33,123 nucleotides of DNA. It comes from Abditibacteriaceae bacterium. Lineage in GTDB: Bacteria; Armatimonadota; Abditibacteriia; Abditibacteriales; Abditibacteriaceae. The translations under genes were made by a program, and so were the position numbers. Within the stretch, counting starts at the first letter, position 1. Every line of letters starts with the position of its first letter. Of the stretch, positions 4,580 through 11,134 are shown one piece after another. The notes beneath the pieces are model-generated. The model had not been told where the DNA came from. It worked only from the letters and a program-made list of their open reading frames with translations, and made no database searches. The DNA is taken from positions 1 through 33,123 of the forward strand of contig JANMKN010000027.1 in NCBI GenBank assembly GCA_031372065.1, read 5' to 3'.

Positions 4580-4738
4580 ATGACACCCGCAGAACTTTTT
4601 ATCGCCCTTGTCTCCACCATCGCGAGCCTATTGCTTGGCTTTCGTTTGTGGTGCTGGGCGATGCGGCGGTGCGATGAGGCGCAGGCGCAGCACGAGAATG
4701 AGTTAGCTAAACGGGACACAAAAAGTGAGAAATTATGA
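4580..4738 (+). CDS. Small single-TM membrane protein (52 aa)
   Basis: MTPAELFIALVSTIASLLLGFRLWCW hydrophobic helix then charged tail; ATGA overlap with the next gene. Confidence 0.55.
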   Translation: MTPAELFIALVSTIASLLLGFRLWCWAMRRCDEAQAQHENELAKRDTKSEKL

Positions 4739-5223
4739 TTCCAAAAATTGATTTAAGCGTGATTGAAAAATTGCACGCGCAGTGTGAGCGGCGCGGCGTC
4801 GGCTATGGTTTGGGTGCCAAGGCCGATCACTTGAGCGATGGGCCGGACAAGTTTTCGCACATTGACTGTTCGGGTTACATCCGAGTTTTGCTTTTTCACG
4901 CCACGAACGGCGCGCTCGTTATTCCTGATGGCAGTCAGAATCAGCGCGAGTGGGCCGAAAAAAATCTAAATCAGGTTGGTCGCTACGTGGATGCGGCCAG
5001 CTATATGACTGGCAATCGCTTGTTCATTTGCTTTATCAAGCCCCACGCTAACGGATGCGGTGCAGTGGGCCATGTTTGGCTCCTACGCGATGCGGACACT
5101 GGAATCGGTGTGCGCGCGGAAACGGTTGAATCTCACGGCGGACACGGCCCGAATAGCCGCGCATGGAACACGGGTGTTCTTATTCGTGAGGTTTATTCGG
5201 TCTTTGAATTGCCGACAGCCTAA
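4735..5223 (+). CDS. Endolysin-like NlpC/P60 (papain-like) peptidoglycan hydrolase
   Basis: YGLGAK...IDCSGYIR (catalytic Cys)...GHVWL (catalytic His)...VESHG; lysis-module context. Confidence 0.75.
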   Translation: MIPKIDLSVIEKLHAQCERRGVGYGLGAKADHLSDGPDKFSHIDCSGYIRVLLFHATNGALVIPDGSQNQREWAEKNLNQVGRYVDAASYMTGNRLFICFIKPHANGCGAVGHVWLLRDADTGIGVRAETVESHGGHGPNSRAWNTGVLIREVYSVFELPTA

Positions 5224-5229
5224 TCAGAT

Positions 5230-5317
5230 AACCGGCGCTTGGTTTGCTGCAAATTTGCCGTGAGTGAATGCACCGCGCAGCGTATTTAGTCGCAGGTGCG
5301 ACGGCCAAGCGCCGGTT
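5230..5317 (+). promoter_or_regulatory. Multi-stem RNA structure closed by a perfect 13-bp stem
   Basis: AACCGGCGCTTGG (5230-5242) / CCAAGCGCCGGTT (5305-5317); inner TGCTGC/GCAGCG and GTCGC/GCGAC stems. Confidence 0.55.
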
Positions 5318-5325
5318 TAAAAAAC

Positions 5326-5892
5326 ATGAGATTCTCGCTGCGCAATCGCTCCTTTTTTGTTGGCCCAACCCTTTTGCGCCATCATGAGCGCCGCCGCTAT
5401 TGGCGCGTTCTCGCCAACATTTTGATGCGCGGCAACACGGAACCAACAGAGTTGTTTTTGTGTGCGACGCTATTGCTAACCGGCATCACGCAATTGGTCT
5501 CACACCAAAAGGTTTATTTGCATTCGCCGTTTTGGGGTTGGTCTTATGTGCTCTTAGCCGTGGTGGGAATTTACGGTTTAGTAACGAGACGAAAAATAAT
5601 GCGAATGTGGTTTGGCTTTGGCACGTTTTACGTTCGCACATGGATAACAACATTGGCTTTTGCCGCGAATCCCGGTGACTTATTTTGGTGTGGCGGCTTA
5701 ATCGGCGCGCTGATGGGAGCGTGGATATTCCTGCGTTATTGGTGCGCTATCGCAGTGGCGCGCGAGCGCAACCGCCGTTTAAAAATCGAAGATGCGGAAC
5801 AATCGAAAATCCTCAATGATTTGCTTATGTTTCGCGTGTTGGAAATGAGGAGCGAAGGCATCCCGGCGGCGGCGATTATCGCCAAGGCGTGA
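5326..5892 (+). CDS. Multi-pass membrane protein
   Basis: About four hydrophobic segments; ATG at 5326 in frame with ORF 5296..5892. Confidence 0.65.
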   Translation: MRFSLRNRSFFVGPTLLRHHERRRYWRVLANILMRGNTEPTELFLCATLLLTGITQLVSHQKVYLHSPFWGWSYVLLAVVGIYGLVTRRKIMRMWFGFGTFYVRTWITTLAFAANPGDLFWCGGLIGALMGAWIFLRYWCAIAVARERNRRLKIEDAEQSKILNDLLMFRVLEMRSEGIPAAAIIAKA

Positions 5893-5905
5893 CTATGGAA
5901 CTAAA

Positions 5906-6247
5906 ATGGCAAACGATCAATGGTGGGTGCCCTTTGTTCCGCAGTTGGCAACCGGGCTTTTAGGTTATGCGGCGGCGCGGCTTGCACACCGCGCCAAAAA
6001 AGAGGAAATCAGCGAAACCTCTTCCTCTCAGGTGCAAATCGCACGCATTGAAGCTGGCACCGCTACAGAGGCCCATCTATGGGAATATTTGAAGGACGCG
6101 GAATCCCGGCACGAAAAAGACATCGAACGTTTAAACGAGTGCAACGATAAACGCCGCGTCGCTGAAAGTCAAATCGTTGTTTTGCGCAGTCGTTTGGCGA
6201 CTGCTCTAAAGCGGATTCGGGCGCTGGAAAAGAGCGAGTGCGGTTAG
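5906..6247 (+). CDS. Membrane-anchored coiled-coil protein (lysis accessory?)
   Basis: N-terminal hydrophobic segment then heptad-rich helix. Confidence 0.65.
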   Translation: MANDQWWVPFVPQLATGLLGYAAARLAHRAKKEEISETSSSQVQIARIEAGTATEAHLWEYLKDAESRHEKDIERLNECNDKRRVAESQIVVLRSRLATALKRIRALEKSECG

Positions 6248-6402
6248 AGACACAATACGCTCAACTTGAAAAAGAACTTCGCGAACTCAAAACGCGACTC
6301 AACCTCATTGACTGGATTGAACACGAACTGAAAGAACATCCTGATGCTTTGAAAGCCCTATTGGAGCAAATCGCTCAGACGAAGGATAAATCGGAAAACT
6401 AA
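6238..6402 (+). CDS. Small coiled-coil protein (54 aa), or -1 frameshift extension of the previous gene
   Basis: Hand translation from GTG 6238: VRLETQYAQLEKELRELKTRLNLIDWIEHELKEHPDALKALLEQIAQTKDKSEN; fills the gap to the ParB-like gene. Confidence 0.55.
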   Translation: MRLETQYAQLEKELRELKTRLNLIDWIEHELKEHPDALKALLEQIAQTKDKSEN

Positions 6403-6409
6403 ATTAACC

Positions 6410-7168
6410 ATGTCACGAAAGAAAACCGCTGTTCCAAGCGTTGCTCCAAGCGTTGCTCCAAGCGTTGCAGGGGCCGTAACGCCCGATCTGCTGCGTTTGG
6501 AATATGTGCCGCTGTCTACAGCCACGGCGTGGGAGAGGAACCCCAAACGCCACGATGTTGGCGCGATCTGGAAAAGTATCCAGCAACACGGCTTTCTTGA
6601 CCCGCCGAAATTTGATGTCAACCTGAATGGCGGGCGCGGTGGTATCGTCGAGGGCAACGGGCGCTCTCACGTTTTACAAGAAATGAAAGCCGCTGGCGAA
6701 GCCCCGCCCCGCGGCGTTATCGATGGTGAGGAGGATTGGCTAATTCCCGTTCTTTTTGGCGTGGACGCGGCCAGTGAGCGCGCCGCCGAAGCCTATGGCG
6801 TGGATCACAACAATTTGGTTTTAAGCGGCGGGGATTTTAGCGCCTTTGATGTCTCTAAACTTTGGGACGAGAACGCTTACGCGGCATTGCTCACCGATCT
6901 GGCGCAGTTTGAAACGCTGCCGGTCAGCGTTGACGGCGACGATGTGGACGCGCTCATTGCGCATCTGGCAAGCGGCGGCGAAAATGGCGGGCACACATCC
7001 TTCAAACAGCAACAGCAAATTGAAAAATCCTCGCCCGGCGCGCCTGCCGACGAGCGCTATAAAGAGCAATACGGCGTGATTGTGATGTGTAGTGACGAGG
7101 CGGAGCAAAAGAGCATATTTGAGCGCCTTCAGGAGGAAGGCTACGACTGTCGCGTAGTCGTTACTTAA
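6410..7168 (+). CDS. ParB/Sulfiredoxin-like N-terminal domain protein with small C-terminal domain
   Basis: VPLS...WERNPKRH...SIQQHGFLDPP...IVEGNGR...DHNNL matches phage ParB-N; C-terminal YGVIVMCSDEAEQKSIFERLQEEGYDCRVV module. Confidence 0.8.
   Translation: MSRKKTAVPSVAPSVAPSVAGAVTPDLLRLEYVPLSTATAWERNPKRHDVGAIWKSIQQHGFLDPPKFDVNLNGGRGGIVEGNGRSHVLQEMKAAGEAPPRGVIDGEEDWLIPVLFGVDAASERAAEAYGVDHNNLVLSGGDFSAFDVSKLWDENAYAALLTDLAQFETLPVSVDGDDVDALIAHLASGGENGGHTSFKQQQQIEKSSPGAPADERYKEQYGVIVMCSDEAEQKSIFERLQEEGYDCRVVVT
6435..6468 (+). repeat. 12-bp in-frame tandem repeat CCAAGCGTTGCT x~3 (PSVA)
   Basis: Directly visible. Confidence 0.9.
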
Positions 7169-7192
7169 ACGGCACTTGAAAGAAGTTGATGT

Positions 7193-8371
7193 ATGAAGTT
7201 AGAAGTTCACAACCATTGTGATGATTACAATTCGTATCGCGCGGCGCGGGTTAAATCCCTCTTCAATGCCGAGAGCGGCTGTAATTTCGATTTAACTGCC
7301 GAGTTGCCGATTGATGACAACGAGTGGAGCCTCGGTCTCATTGTTGGCCCGTCCGGTAGTGGCAAAACCAGTTTGGGCAAACAGATATTTGGCCCGTCGG
7401 CGTTGTATGGATCGGCTGGCTGGCCGCTTGATAAACCAATCGTCGAAGCCATTGCGCCGGAGAAACCATTTGACGACGTAACGGGCGCTTTAGCTGCTGT
7501 GGGACTTGGCACCGTCCCGGCGTGGCTGCGGCCCTATGCTGTGCTTTCCAACGGTGAGAAGTTCCGCGCTGACCTTGCCCGCGTCATCTGCGATGCACCG
7601 CAGCGCGTTGCAATTGATGAATTCACCAGCGTGGTAGACCGGCAAATCGCCAAATTCGGCGCGCACGCCTTTGCCAAATCGTGGCGGCGTGCGGCGAAAA
7701 GTAGCGGCGCTCAATGCGTTTTGCTCTCGTGCCACTATGACATCATTGAATGGGTAGAACCGGACTGGATATTTGATACCGCAACAGGCAAGTATTCAGG
7801 CCGGTCACTTTGGCGACGCCCACAATTTGAACTCGCCATTTGGCAGACGGATTGGCGTTACTGGCCTATGTTTGAGCCGCATCACTATTTGAAATTGCCG
7901 CGTATGATCGCCGCGCAGTGCTACGTTGGCGGCGTGGACGGCGAGCCGGTTTGTCATGTGGCATTTTCGACGCGGCCCGGATTAGTCGAAGCGCGGGCCT
8001 GTCGTTTAGTGGTCACACCGGAATGGCAGGGCGCCGGGGTTGGAATGCGCTTTTTAAACGCGGTGTGCGAGATGTGGCGGCTCGGTGAAAACCGTTATCA
8101 AAAGCCGATGCTAACGCTCTTTCATACTTCGCATCCGGGTTTATGCGCGGCGCTGCGGCGCGATCCGAACTGGGTGCAAGTGAGTGCGAATCTTTACGGC
8201 GGCAACAAGGCGCGTAGCCGGGCCAGCATGGAACGCAGTGATGCGCGCAACAATACGAAAAATGCCAAATCTGGTTTTGGCGGTCACTTTCGGGCGGTGC
8301 AGGGTTTTCGATATTTAGGAGCCGAGGCAGTTGCAGAATCTCGTGCGGCGGCGCGTGGTGAAAAACAATAA
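7193..8371 (+). CDS. ABC-type ATPase fused to GNAT acyltransferase (putative DNA-modification enzyme)
   Basis: Walker A GPSGSGKTS, signature LSNGEKFR, Walker B AIDEF, H-loop SCH; GNAT motif A RLVVTPEWQGAGVG; no permease gene nearby. Confidence 0.88.
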   Translation: MKLEVHNHCDDYNSYRAARVKSLFNAESGCNFDLTAELPIDDNEWSLGLIVGPSGSGKTSLGKQIFGPSALYGSAGWPLDKPIVEAIAPEKPFDDVTGALAAVGLGTVPAWLRPYAVLSNGEKFRADLARVICDAPQRVAIDEFTSVVDRQIAKFGAHAFAKSWRRAAKSSGAQCVLLSCHYDIIEWVEPDWIFDTATGKYSGRSLWRRPQFELAIWQTDWRYWPMFEPHHYLKLPRMIAAQCYVGGVDGEPVCHVAFSTRPGLVEARACRLVVTPEWQGAGVGMRFLNAVCEMWRLGENRYQKPMLTLFHTSHPGLCAALRRDPNWVQVSANLYGGNKARSRASMERSDARNNTKNAKSGFGGHFRAVQGFRYLGAEAVAESRAAARGEKQ

Positions 8372-9081
8372 TGCGGATTTACCTTTGCGGTCAAAAACTC
8401 TTTGGGAGGGAAACATTTCATCTTCTGCGCGAATTGGGGCATGAGATTGTCGGTGTTTCCGCACCGCCTGAAGGCCGCGATGGGCGCCCCGATAAATTAT
8501 GGCAACGGGCCGCGTTCGGCAACATTCCACGACTGCCAGCGGGCGAACTAAACGCGACGACACTGCCCGCTGATGTGGATTTGATTGTCTGCGCGCATAG
8601 TCATGATTTTATAGGGCGCGCCACGCGAGGAAAGGCCCGCTTTGGCGCGATAGGCTATCATCCGTCGCTCTTGCCGCTGCATCGGGGCCGCGATGCCATT
8701 CGCTGGACTTTGCGTGACGGCGACCGCGTGACCGGCGGCACGGTTTATTGGTTGAATGACACGGTGGACGGCGGGCCGGTGGCCGCGCAGGATTGGTGCT
8801 TCGTGCAGCCGAATGATACGCCGGAAACGCTGTGGCGCCGTGAACTGTTTCGTATGGGCCAGCGTCTTTTTCGGCAAGTGCTAACCGACATTCCGCGCGG
8901 AATGTTAGTGCAGATTCCACAGGATGAAAAGCTGGCGACGTGGGAGCCGAGTTTTAACCCGCCACCGCTCAGGCGGCCTGACCTGCCGATGTTGACCGAC
9001 GGGCGCGAATCTGGTTTTCGTGTGGTTGTCTCGCGGGACGATGCGCGCGAATTCGCTGGGGATTTTGTAGGGTCAGGGTGA
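8371..9081 (+). CDS. 10-formyl-THF-dependent formyltransferase family protein
   Basis: GYHPSLLPLHRG...AIRW...GGTVYWLNDTVDGG; TAATG coupling to the ATPase-GNAT gene. Confidence 0.9.
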   Translation: MRIYLCGQKLFGRETFHLLRELGHEIVGVSAPPEGRDGRPDKLWQRAAFGNIPRLPAGELNATTLPADVDLIVCAHSHDFIGRATRGKARFGAIGYHPSLLPLHRGRDAIRWTLRDGDRVTGGTVYWLNDTVDGGPVAAQDWCFVQPNDTPETLWRRELFRMGQRLFRQVLTDIPRGMLVQIPQDEKLATWEPSFNPPPLRRPDLPMLTDGRESGFRVVVSRDDAREFAGDFVGSG

Positions 9082-9087
9082 TAATGT

Positions 9088-9600
9088 GTGGCGCATCGAG
9101 AAACAGCCAAGCACCGAGAAGCATTTGAGGCATGGTATGCCGTCAACCGCGAATTTGGCAAAATTTGGCGAAAACTGGCAATCCCAGAGCGCACGTTGCG
9201 GAATTGGGCGAAGTGGTTTGAGTGGCACGAATTAGCCGACGCCCGCGATGTTGAAGCGCAGCGAATCGCCGACGAGGAGGCCGCGAAGGAGCGGGCAGAG
9301 CGTCAAAAGCGGCGGCGGCGCGCGGCGGAATTGCTGACGGCGCGCGGCGTCAAGTTTTTCAGCACGAATGAAATTGACACGCCGCGCGATGCGATTCAGG
9401 CTATCAAGGCCGGCTTGGAAAACGAACGTAAGGAAGACGGTGTGCCTGATTGGGTTTTGATGATTCTTAATGCCAAACCTGAAGACCTCGAAGCAATGGG
9501 AAGACTCTTTGGCTCATCTCTCGCCGACGCAGCGGAAACAAGCAGCGACGCTGATAGCTTATCGCTTGAAGCAGATGCCGAAGCAGAGGTCAGCGGATAA
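9088..9600 (+). CDS. Probable terminase small subunit
   Basis: N-terminal HTH (LAIPERTLRNWAKWFEW), helical middle, immediately upstream of and overlapping TerL. Confidence 0.72.
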   Translation: MAHRETAKHREAFEAWYAVNREFGKIWRKLAIPERTLRNWAKWFEWHELADARDVEAQRIADEEAAKERAERQKRRRRAAELLTARGVKFFSTNEIDTPRDAIQAIKAGLENERKEDGVPDWVLMILNAKPEDLEAMGRLFGSSLADAAETSSDADSLSLEADAEAEVSG

Positions 9601-11134
9601 TTCAAAATTGCAGCGCGCGGCTGCAGAGCGCGCCAGAAGTTATGATGATTTCAAGGCTAAATATCGCAGCGATCCTGAAGGCTTTGTTTTGGATTGCATC
9701 GCTTGGAAAGATGGCGACAGCCCAACGGATTACCAGCTTGAAATTTTGCGCGCCATCCCTGAGAAAAAGCGCGTCTGTGTGCGCGGCCCGCACGGTTTAG
9801 GTAAGACGGCGCTGTCTGCATGGCTGGTCCTATGGTTCGCCTTGACGCGCGATGGCGAAGATTGGAAGATGCCCACCACGGCAGGAGCGTGGCGCCAATT
9901 AACCAAGTTCCTGTGGCCGGAGATTCACAAATGGGCGCGTCGCCTCAAATGGGATGTTATCGGGCGAGTGCCTTTCGATGAGCGCCTTGAGCTGCAGACA
10001 CTGGGACTCAAATTATCAACAGGCGAAGCGTTTGCGGTGGCTTCGAACAAGCCGGACTTAATCGAAGGCGCTCATGCCGATTGTCTGTTTTATCTTTATG
10101 ACGAATCGAAGGCCATCGGCGATGACACATTTGATGCCGCCGAAGGCGCCTTTTCCAATGCGGGCGAGAACACAATGAATGAGGCATTTGCAGCGGCGTT
10201 TTCGACGCCGGGAGAGCCGCAGGGCCGCTTTTACGATATTCAATCGCGTAAAGCTGGCTTTGAAGACTGGTGGCCGCGCGCAGTCAGCTTGGAGGAAACC
10301 GTCGCAGCGGGCCGCGTGGCGCGTGATTGGGCCATGCAACGTGGGCGGCAGTGGGGCGCGGACTCAACACTTTATATTCGGCGTGTTCTGGGCAACTTCG
10401 CCAGCGATGATGAAAGCGGCGTGGTTCCCTTGTCGTGGGTTGAAGCCGCGCAGGAGCGGTGGCAAGATTGGGTTGAAGCTGGGAAAATCGGCGAACTGGA
10501 AGCATTAGGTATTGATGTAGGCGGCGGCGGCGATCCTTCTGTTTTGGCAAAGCTTTTTCGCATTAATGAGCCTGAGCGCTTGCCGGAAGTGAGGCGCGCC
10601 GTAGATGAATTGGAATATGATCGGAGTGGTGATCCGCTGGCGATCGGCTCGATTGCCTCGCGCACCTTGAATAAGTTCCCGGCGCTCCGCACCGTCGTGG
10701 ACGTGATCGGTTTAGGTGCGGGCACGGCCAGTGAGCTGCGGCGCTCCTTTTCGCGCATATTAGGCTTTGTTGCCGGAGGGAAAGTGCCGACGGACGCGCG
10801 CGGTAATGAATTGACTGACAAGAGCGGCGATATGCTCTTTGCCGACGCGCGTTCATGGGCGTGGTGGACGATGCGGGAGATGCTTGATCCGCAATATGCC
10901 GAGGGTTGGGCGCTGCCACCTGATGATCGCTTGACTGGCGACCTCACTGCCCCCAAGTGGCGCGAATGGGGCAAAGGGCGCGTCCGCGTTGAATCCAAGG
11001 AAGATATTCGCAAGCGCCTCAAGCGCTCCACGGACGCCGCCGACGCTGTGATTCAAATGTTATACGATGAACCGAAGGAAGAAGAAATTCCGGAGCGCCG
11101 GGTCGGCTCGTTTTCATTTCGCAATTTTGGATAG
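9470..11134 (+). CDS. terL: Terminase large subunit
   Basis: Walker A VRGPHGLGKT, Walker B LYDES, coupling motif STP, RNase H-like nuclease GIDVG...VVDVIGLG...STDAADA; start could be 9575. Confidence 0.93.
   Translation: MPNLKTSKQWEDSLAHLSPTQRKQAATLIAYRLKQMPKQRSADNSKLQRAAAERARSYDDFKAKYRSDPEGFVLDCIAWKDGDSPTDYQLEILRAIPEKKRVCVRGPHGLGKTALSAWLVLWFALTRDGEDWKMPTTAGAWRQLTKFLWPEIHKWARRLKWDVIGRVPFDERLELQTLGLKLSTGEAFAVASNKPDLIEGAHADCLFYLYDESKAIGDDTFDAAEGAFSNAGENTMNEAFAAAFSTPGEPQGRFYDIQSRKAGFEDWWPRAVSLEETVAAGRVARDWAMQRGRQWGADSTLYIRRVLGNFASDDESGVVPLSWVEAAQERWQDWVEAGKIGELEALGIDVGGGGDPSVLAKLFRINEPERLPEVRRAVDELEYDRSGDPLAIGSIASRTLNKFPALRTVVDVIGLGAGTASELRRSFSRILGFVAGGKVPTDARGNELTDKSGDMLFADARSWAWWTMREMLDPQYAEGWALPPDDRLTGDLTAPKWREWGKGRVRVESKEDIRKRLKRSTDAADAVIQMLYDEPKEEEIPERRVGSFSFRNFG

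Follow-up and report, generated by a model that had tools for sequence, protein, structure and literature searches.

Genes at the locus

We characterised a 33,123-bp contig (JANMKN010000027.1; "the window" throughout, meaning this whole stretch of DNA), which carries phage genes within a 6.1-Mb assembly of an Abditibacteriaceae bacterium (GCA_031372065.1), and focused on a cassette of three genes lying directly upstream of the terminase genes (Table 1). Cassettes of this kind are widespread and mobile in phages and, in one slot of Mu-like phages, alternate with the DNA-modifying Mom protein and with a thymidylate-synthase-like (TS-like) gene paired with an adenine methylase; tentatively, we read the cassette as a system that formylates DNA bases. 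As described in the initial annotation, the genes are tightly linked: a gap of 24 nt separates genes 1 and 2, genes 2 and 3 share one nucleotide in a TAA/ATG overlap, and 6 nt separate the end of gene 3 from the GTG start of TerS. Thirty other genomes of the host's class, several of them incomplete, yielded no copy of the cassette, which is therefore considered phage-borne; a TerL relative among those genomes sits at a contig end. The host has its own Fmt and PurN, encoded by separate genes and both with the N-x-H motif.

Table 1 Features of the cassette and the adjoining terminase genes
Feature	Position	Strand	Description
Gene 1	6410-7168	+	252 aa; ParB/Srx-like N-terminal domain fused to tail domain
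Tail domain	7055..7165	+	~37 aa; phrog_28816 match at aa 216-250 of gene 1, E = 2.9e-10
Gene 2	7193-8371	+	392 aa; ATP-binding cassette (ABC) ATPase + GNAT; whole gene phrog_11143, E = 2.6e-150
Gene 2, compact ABC-ATPase domain	7193..7816	+	Walker A K58, LSNGE, D142/E143, D149, H181
Gene 2, GNAT domain	7817..8371	+	Motif A QGAGVG (279-284), R271; Pfam E = 2e-4
Gene 3	8371-9081	+	236 aa; predicted ALDH1L1-N/HypX-type formyltransferase domain
TerS, terminase small subunit	9088..9600	+	phrog_6299, E = 6.7e-11; context, outside the cassette
TerL, terminase large subunit	9470..11134	+	phrog_2, E = 2.4e-24; context

Distribution of the cassette and its constant partner

The ABC-GNAT protein matched 75 GenBank phage records; among the 60 matches listed, 22 showed 53–65% identity and the others at most 38%. 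The formyltransferase was found at 44–49% identity in 14 GenBank phage records, each time directly 3' of the ABC-GNAT gene. The close query found matches in 385 viral stretches and, at 50% identity, 543 clusters of proteins reached E = 1e-30. Two sets of viral loci were sampled, each limited to its best 80: one out of 385 close loci, with many near-copies among them, and one out of at least 262 distant loci. A locus was counted for gene 3 if 600 nt or more followed downstream (22 close loci were dropped as too short, and 4 distant ones were dropped); gene 3 was present in 54 of 58 close loci and in none of 76 distant ones. The three genes co-occur widely, in line with the initial reading. In a FastTree phylogeny of 96 sequences, the formyltransferase-bearing forms made up one branch, which also included three members without a formyltransferase, and in-frame ABC-GNAT-formyltransferase fusions were seen in P0121 and P0279. 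Based on these distribution counts, we regard the tail domain and the ABC-GNAT protein as the core, to which one clade added gene 3.

Gene 1 matched ParB-like PHROGs (phrog_620, E = 1.6e-11; phrog_498, E = 1.5e-11) and a ParB hidden Markov model made from related loci (E = 3.9e-10), and has GNGR at aa 82–85 of its N-terminal domain; near its start (6431–6470), a 12-nt tandem repeat encodes VPSVAPSVAPSVA. While the ParB-like assignment made initially stands, the separate family at its C-terminus, phrog_28816, had been overlooked. The residue pattern of this ~37-residue tail domain suggests a strand-helix-strand fold. It was encoded upstream of ABC-GNAT in all 78 close loci and in 74 of the 76 distant ones (2 and 4 loci dropped, respectively), as a stand-alone peptide in 66 of the 78 close loci, as in Mu-like phages, and as a ParB fusion in 12 of the 78 close loci, 25 of 27 loci found through the formyltransferase, and 74 of 77 distant loci. 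The constant partner of ABC-GNAT is therefore this tail domain, and neither ParB nor the terminase.

The tie to the terminase and ParB was not supported in the form proposed initially. Gordonia phage NHagos has the order ParB, ABC-GNAT, formyltransferase, terminase, but Mu-like phages carry the cassette behind their tail genes, and a peptide of 40–60 aa stands where ParB is found elsewhere; phiE255, Komp_PAO1_1 and a Porphyromonas phage, for example, carry an open reading frame of 42–54 aa, ABC-GNAT and the formyltransferase behind their tail genes. Across the collection, the cassette occurs in unrelated phages with unrelated terminases or with none nearby. ASCH was considered as a fixed partner and rejected, being present in 2 of 80 distant loci only.

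Exchange with Mom and adenine methylase genes in one slot

In gut Mu-like phages the cassette is preceded by an 80-aa gene (phrog_17790), which we used as an anchor, examining the best 80 of 314 loci. Downstream of it, the cassette was present in 34 of 80 loci (33 with ABC-GNAT and formyltransferase, one with ABC-GNAT ending at the contig edge), a TS-like gene in 44 (43 with a D12 adenine methylase, one with the TS-like gene incomplete), and true Mom in two (32% identity to Mu Mom; Pfam Mom, E = 1.3e-58). No locus among the 80 held two of these three, and the tree of the anchor (48 distinct sequences) forces at least two exchanges between the cassette and the TS-like/methylase pair. The cassette, the pair and Mom thus alternate in one slot of Mu-like phages. 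Among 73 viral loci related to the Mom homologue found in the slot (L322:3404-4138), none had cassette genes within 1.5 kb, and 23 had the same phrog_17790 anchor. Examples of the 214-aa TS-like gene coupled to a D12 adenine methylase lie at L315:2893-3534 and L291:4053-4904, and a reverse transcriptase is located just 5' of the slot in 21 gut phage loci (e.g., L034:670-1968). Two viral TerL relatives of the window were found: in one (67%), TerS is preceded by a ParB-N6/N4 methylase, and the other is cut off.

Gene 3 as a predicted ALDH1L1/HypX-type formyltransferase

Gene 3 contains G95-Y96-H97, with glycine where Fmt-type enzymes have asparagine, the replacement of N-x-H by G-Y-H having been read correctly in the initial annotation. 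When compared with PDB sequences, its six best matches were all N-terminal domains of 10-formyl-tetrahydrofolate (10-formyl-THF) dehydrogenase (E = 4e-30 to 2e-28), the best Fmt following at E = 8e-12. A profile of 106 gene 3 sequences scored 160 bits with ALDH1L1-N, 101 with Fmt, 72 with ArnA, 65 with PurN and 53 with HypX, in agreement with the earlier suggestion of closeness to the ALDH1L1 N-terminal domain rather than to Fmt or PurN. Measured against family cut-offs, gene 3 reached 63.5 of 201.5 for Fmt and 48.1 of 150.1 for PurN, and it lacks Formyl_trans_C, the C-terminal subdomain. Residues H97, S99 and D133 are invariant and correspond to His106, Ser108 and Asp142 of the ALDH1L1 N-terminal domain (PMC6802093). 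The asparagine two places before the histidine, termed crucial in Fmt, ArnA and GART and represented by Ile104 in vertebrate ALDH1L1 (PMC4388273), was found in 0 of 106 gene 3 sequences.

Nine alignment positions are common to gene 3 and ALDH1L, and one to gene 3 and Fmt. With relatives' genes labelled by length and tree position, a one-residue helix insertion was present in all cassette (25/25), cellular (9/9), ALDH1L (9/9), formyltransferase-FTHFS (1/1) and HypX (1/1) sequences, and absent from 22 Fmt, 6 ArnA and 6 other sequences (0/34). In a 54-sequence tree, made by dropping four long branches and redundant sequences, the cassette, cellular and ALDH1L forms grouped together with support of 98/90; P0273 (an apparent frameshift join) and P0282 (a transposase join) were excluded from trees. 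Gene 3 therefore falls outside Fmt by its N-x-H position, C-terminal domain, cut-off score and place in the 54-sequence tree, a sister position to Fmt not being excluded by the approximately unbiased (AU) test, and outside PurN and ArnA by motif and family score, while it shares with ALDH1L1-N the His-Ser-Asp triad, the aromatic-His-Pro-Ser motif, the helix insertion and the best profile score. By these residues and scores, it is classified as an ALDH1L1/HypX-type formyltransferase. The ALDH1L1 N-terminal domain hands its formyl group to a phosphopantetheine arm (PMC8748788; PMC6802093), and formyl-CoA (CoA, coenzyme A) synthesis has been proposed for the HypX N-terminal domain, without direct proof in PMC6802093.

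Betaproteobacteria-type formyltransferase-ACT-ACT proteins (L120-L129) are nested within the phage formyltransferase clade; two of their genes adjoin FdhD or a molybdopterin oxidoreductase, and the proteins are possibly regulated 10-formyl-THF hydrolases. In P0275, an ALDH1L1-N-like domain that branches beside ALDH1L is fused to formate-THF ligase, and a free ALDH1L1-N-like copy is located two genes away from formate-THF ligase at L116:4001-7116.

Gene 2 as a fused ABC-ATPase and GNAT

The ABC motifs of gene 2 (Walker A at 52–59, signature LSNGE at 118, Walker B DE at 142–143, H181) are all intact and invariant or nearly so across 105 sequences. Walker A and the signature lie ~32 residues closer together than in the transporter that matched best, scores on all NCBIfam models were far under cut-off, and no permease family recurred among the neighbours of ~195 related loci (clusters; 95 representatives scanned). 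These three features set gene 2 apart from the nucleotide-binding domains of ABC transporters and, with the Pfam GNAT match, agree with the earlier description of an ATPase fused to a GNAT and lacking a permease partner.

Landmarks of the GNAT domain include W224-F227-HHYL (230–233), R271 and a basic insertion after aa 331. The loop R-x-V-x-x-P-x-x-Q-G-x-G-x-G/A was kept in 75 of 77 cassette GNAT sequences, which fits the acyl-CoA type assumed initially, and a Q/R-x-x-G-x-G/A loop was seen in 0 of 17 Mom sequences. GNAT loops of this kind bind the CoA pyrophosphate. H231-Y232 and R271 are near-invariant among cassette GNATs, a count made without an unrelated-GNAT control. In the formyltransferase clade, some GNAT residues are both invariant and private to the clade (among them H255, F310-H311 and GGHFRAVQG), with H255 in 36 of 36 of its sequences and F, M or L at the same position in 52 of 53 others; since all come from one clade, they are not independent evidence. 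The domain matched generic acetyltransferase families only, and its profile likewise gave generic PDB matches (NAT10 at E = 0.13). The ESM Atlas returned unnamed or same-family clusters only. One ABC-GNAT relative, P0202, contains Hint and LAGLIDADG domains, an intein-like insertion.

Proposed function

In the scheme that we propose, gene 3 would load CoA with the formyl group of host 10-formyl-THF, and the gene 2 GNAT would pass this group from formyl-CoA to the base's exocyclic amine in deoxyadenosine (dA) or deoxycytidine (dC). The ABC domain would likely supply ATP-driven DNA engagement and the tail domain would likely serve as an obligate subunit or activator, ParB being optional. The phage's own DNA would be modified after replication, late in infection, presumably for protection against restriction, and clades without gene 3 would use host acyl-CoA, probably acetyl-CoA. 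We advance this route from formyl-THF through formyl-CoA to an N-formylated DNA base tentatively as a whole, and its parts differ in strength. DNA is the probable substrate: slot exchange with Mom and the adenine methylase backs this part of the earlier proposal, although the support is positional, and the analogy with Mom does not extend to chemistry (PMC13219725). If DNA is the substrate, a formyl thioester is a reasonably probable donor for the GNAT. Gene 3 would most simply be the source of formyl-CoA, because a free-standing ALDH1L1/HypX-type enzyme lies beside, and is sometimes fused to, an acyl-CoA-type GNAT. As to the target, position favours adenine N6 by analogy with both slot-mates, which act there, and chemistry together with the ATPase+GNAT layout favours cytosine N4; we lean slightly towards adenine. 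It is conceivable, if somewhat doubtful, that the free-standing formyltransferase, ABC-GNAT and 37-residue cofactor constitute a third, chemically new alternative to Mom, producing N-formyl-dA or N-formyl-dC, with acetyl in the sister clades.

A number of observations weigh against this reading. The loci behind the slot comparison come from a single phage group and closely copy one another, and it was a cassette locus that supplied the anchor. In BcepMu, an O-acetyltransferase follows the tail fibre at the place that the cassette takes in phiE255, and B3 encodes Com and a methylase at another point of its late operon; DNA modification thus does not have the right-end slot of BcepMu-type phages to itself, which weakens the argument from the position in phiE255. 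With regard to gene 3, five of nine ALDH1L-type sequences keep the asparagine, so its loss alone does not define the type. A clade with ALDH1L was recovered in the pruned tree, but a quick 77-sequence tree with long branches kept did not settle this grouping, and the AU test did not reject a grouping of the long cassette clade with Fmt (p = 0.267). In isolation, the ALDH1L1 domain also acts as a hydrolase, with release of formate (PMC4388273). Cellular proteins of the gene 3 clade are free-standing or have ACT domains attached, and some are encoded next to formate genes, so proteins of this type can act without a GNAT; in four of the 58 close loci, an unchanged GNAT has no gene 3 beside it. 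Profile comparisons of the cassette GNAT with Mom (hhalign; prob 0.05, and prob 0.75 with E = 0.075) and with TmcA (prob 2, E = 0.025, motif A only) were not significant. Formyl-CoA is a labile compound, as are N-formyl amidines. Our main worry for the formyl reading is lability, acyl groups on N6 of adenine having been described as unstable (PMC13219725).

An unlikely alternative is that ABC-GNAT acylates DNA with host acyl-CoA (acetyl) in all clades, with gene 3 having another role, either 10-formyl-THF hydrolysis that tunes folate or formate, or later formyl addition. Consistent with this, the core occurs without gene 3 in all 76 distant loci and in four of the 58 close ones, cellular relatives of gene 3 have formate-THF ligase, FdhD or a molybdopterin oxidoreductase as neighbours, and 10-formyl-THF is hydrolysed by ALDH1L1-N (PMC4388273). 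Against it, 54 of the 58 loci in one clade retain gene 3, which overlaps the preceding stop codon and is occasionally fused; the private GNAT residues also speak against it, although they come from that same single clade and are not independent. It is also unlikely that the system acts late in infection on a protein or an RNA, acylating or formylating host RNA polymerase, tRNA, terminase or capsid protein. Against this speak slot exchange with Mom and DNA methylases, ParB fusion, the basic C-terminal insertion and occurrence in unrelated phages with unrelated terminases or none nearby. In favour of such a substrate are the purely generic family and PDB matches of the GNAT, the known phage GNATs that modify host proteins (the Rac passage of PMC7824862), and the action on RNA of TmcA/NAT10, the known ATPase+GNAT enzymes.

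Chemistry closer to that of Mom, in which the GNAT would move an amino acid from a charged tRNA to DNA and gene 3 would formyl-cap the new amine, appears improbable. Slot exchange, the common HY pair and arginine, and the Gly-tRNA donor of Mom (PMC13219725) point that way, but the acyl-CoA loop is kept by the cassette GNATs and absent from Mom, no profile match was significant, and the asparagine of amine-formylating enzymes is missing from all 106 gene 3 sequences. A set of unlinked auxiliary genes, namely a canonical Fmt or PurN and an orphan transporter ATPase, is how database labels read, and it is very improbable given Fmt/PurN scores far under cut-offs, the missing Formyl_trans_C and asparagine, a host that owns Fmt and PurN, the conserved linkage, and the lack of a permease.

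If DNA formylation holds true, an enzymatically N-formylated DNA base and a GNAT using formyl-CoA would be new chemistry; to our knowledge, neither has been known before. The cassette is found in culturable phages (10 Gordonia records and Pseudomonas phage Komp_PAO1_1), making the prediction testable by liquid chromatography–mass spectrometry (+28 versus +42 Da), and the free-standing gene 3 enzyme is relevant to the question of where the formyl-transfer domain of ALDH1L1 came from.

Other features of the window

Some 4 kb upstream of the cassette, a PAPS-reductase-like gene (703–1869) is followed by a DUF488-ASCH fusion (1866–2654), a possible second modification or reader module. The region 4735–6402 probably encodes lysis genes; it gave no Pfam or PHROG match of note, and 4735–5223 has a DCSG...H pattern that we take to resemble NlpC/P60 peptidases. 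The contig ends (1–1500 and 31624–33123) match parts of contigs C370, C74, C185, C186 and C37, which suggests related prophage pieces within the assembly. Promoter and terminator counts were at chance level.

Comparison with known systems

The system nearest to the cassette is one predicted in 2013 (Iyer, Zhang, Burroughs and Aravind; known to us through PMC7824862, which cites it): a GNAT coupled with an ABC ATPase, proposed to acylate a DNA base in a so far uncharacterised way and occurring in phage pT24. It has the same domain pair, and the pT24 protein is a homologue of gene 2 (31.5%, E = 1e-39). The passages of PMC7824862 on this system mention no formyltransferase, tail domain or donor, which the 2013 paper itself may list. 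Passages of the paper on phages LE3 and LE4 yielded no data on modification. No bench test of the cassette was found in the literature searched, where PMC7824862 was the only relevant article (its supplements may list this neighbourhood); the initial label of "uncharacterised" thus holds for experiment but not for prediction of the core.

Mu Mom and the cassette GNAT share the GNAT fold, an HY pair, a beta-4 arginine, a basic insertion and the same slot in Mu-like phages. In contrast, Mom uses Gly-tRNA as donor and needs H58, Y59 and R111 (PMC13219725), and it has no acyl-CoA loop, ATPase or formyltransferase. Pfam Mom did not match the window GNAT, and 2 of 77 cassette GNAT sequences matched it at E = 0.01. 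TmcA/NAT10 resembles gene 2 in its ATPase-GNAT fusion, similar motif A, upstream HY pair and, in TmcA, the equivalent arginine, but differs by a helicase-type rather than ABC ATPase, a tRNA-binding domain, an RNA substrate and the HY-to-arginine spacing (83 residues in TmcA versus 40 in the cassette GNAT); its GNAT family, PF13718, gave weak matches from 4 of 77 cassette sequences. Judged by these comparisons, the cassette GNAT belongs to neither family. For gene 3, the closest solved relative is ALDH1L1-N/HypX-N (~37% identity), with the His-Ser-Asp triad and the one-residue insertion in common; R105 is equivalent to Arg114 of ALDH1L1, Tyr200 is replaced by Trp191, and the C-terminal subdomain, carrier domain and ALDH or decarbonylase domain of ALDH1L1/HypX are absent. 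The cassette is real and widespread, and its ABC-GNAT core had been predicted in print before; what is new is the slot exchange, the predicted ALDH1L1/HypX-type kinship, the kept acyl-CoA loop and the tail domain as partner.

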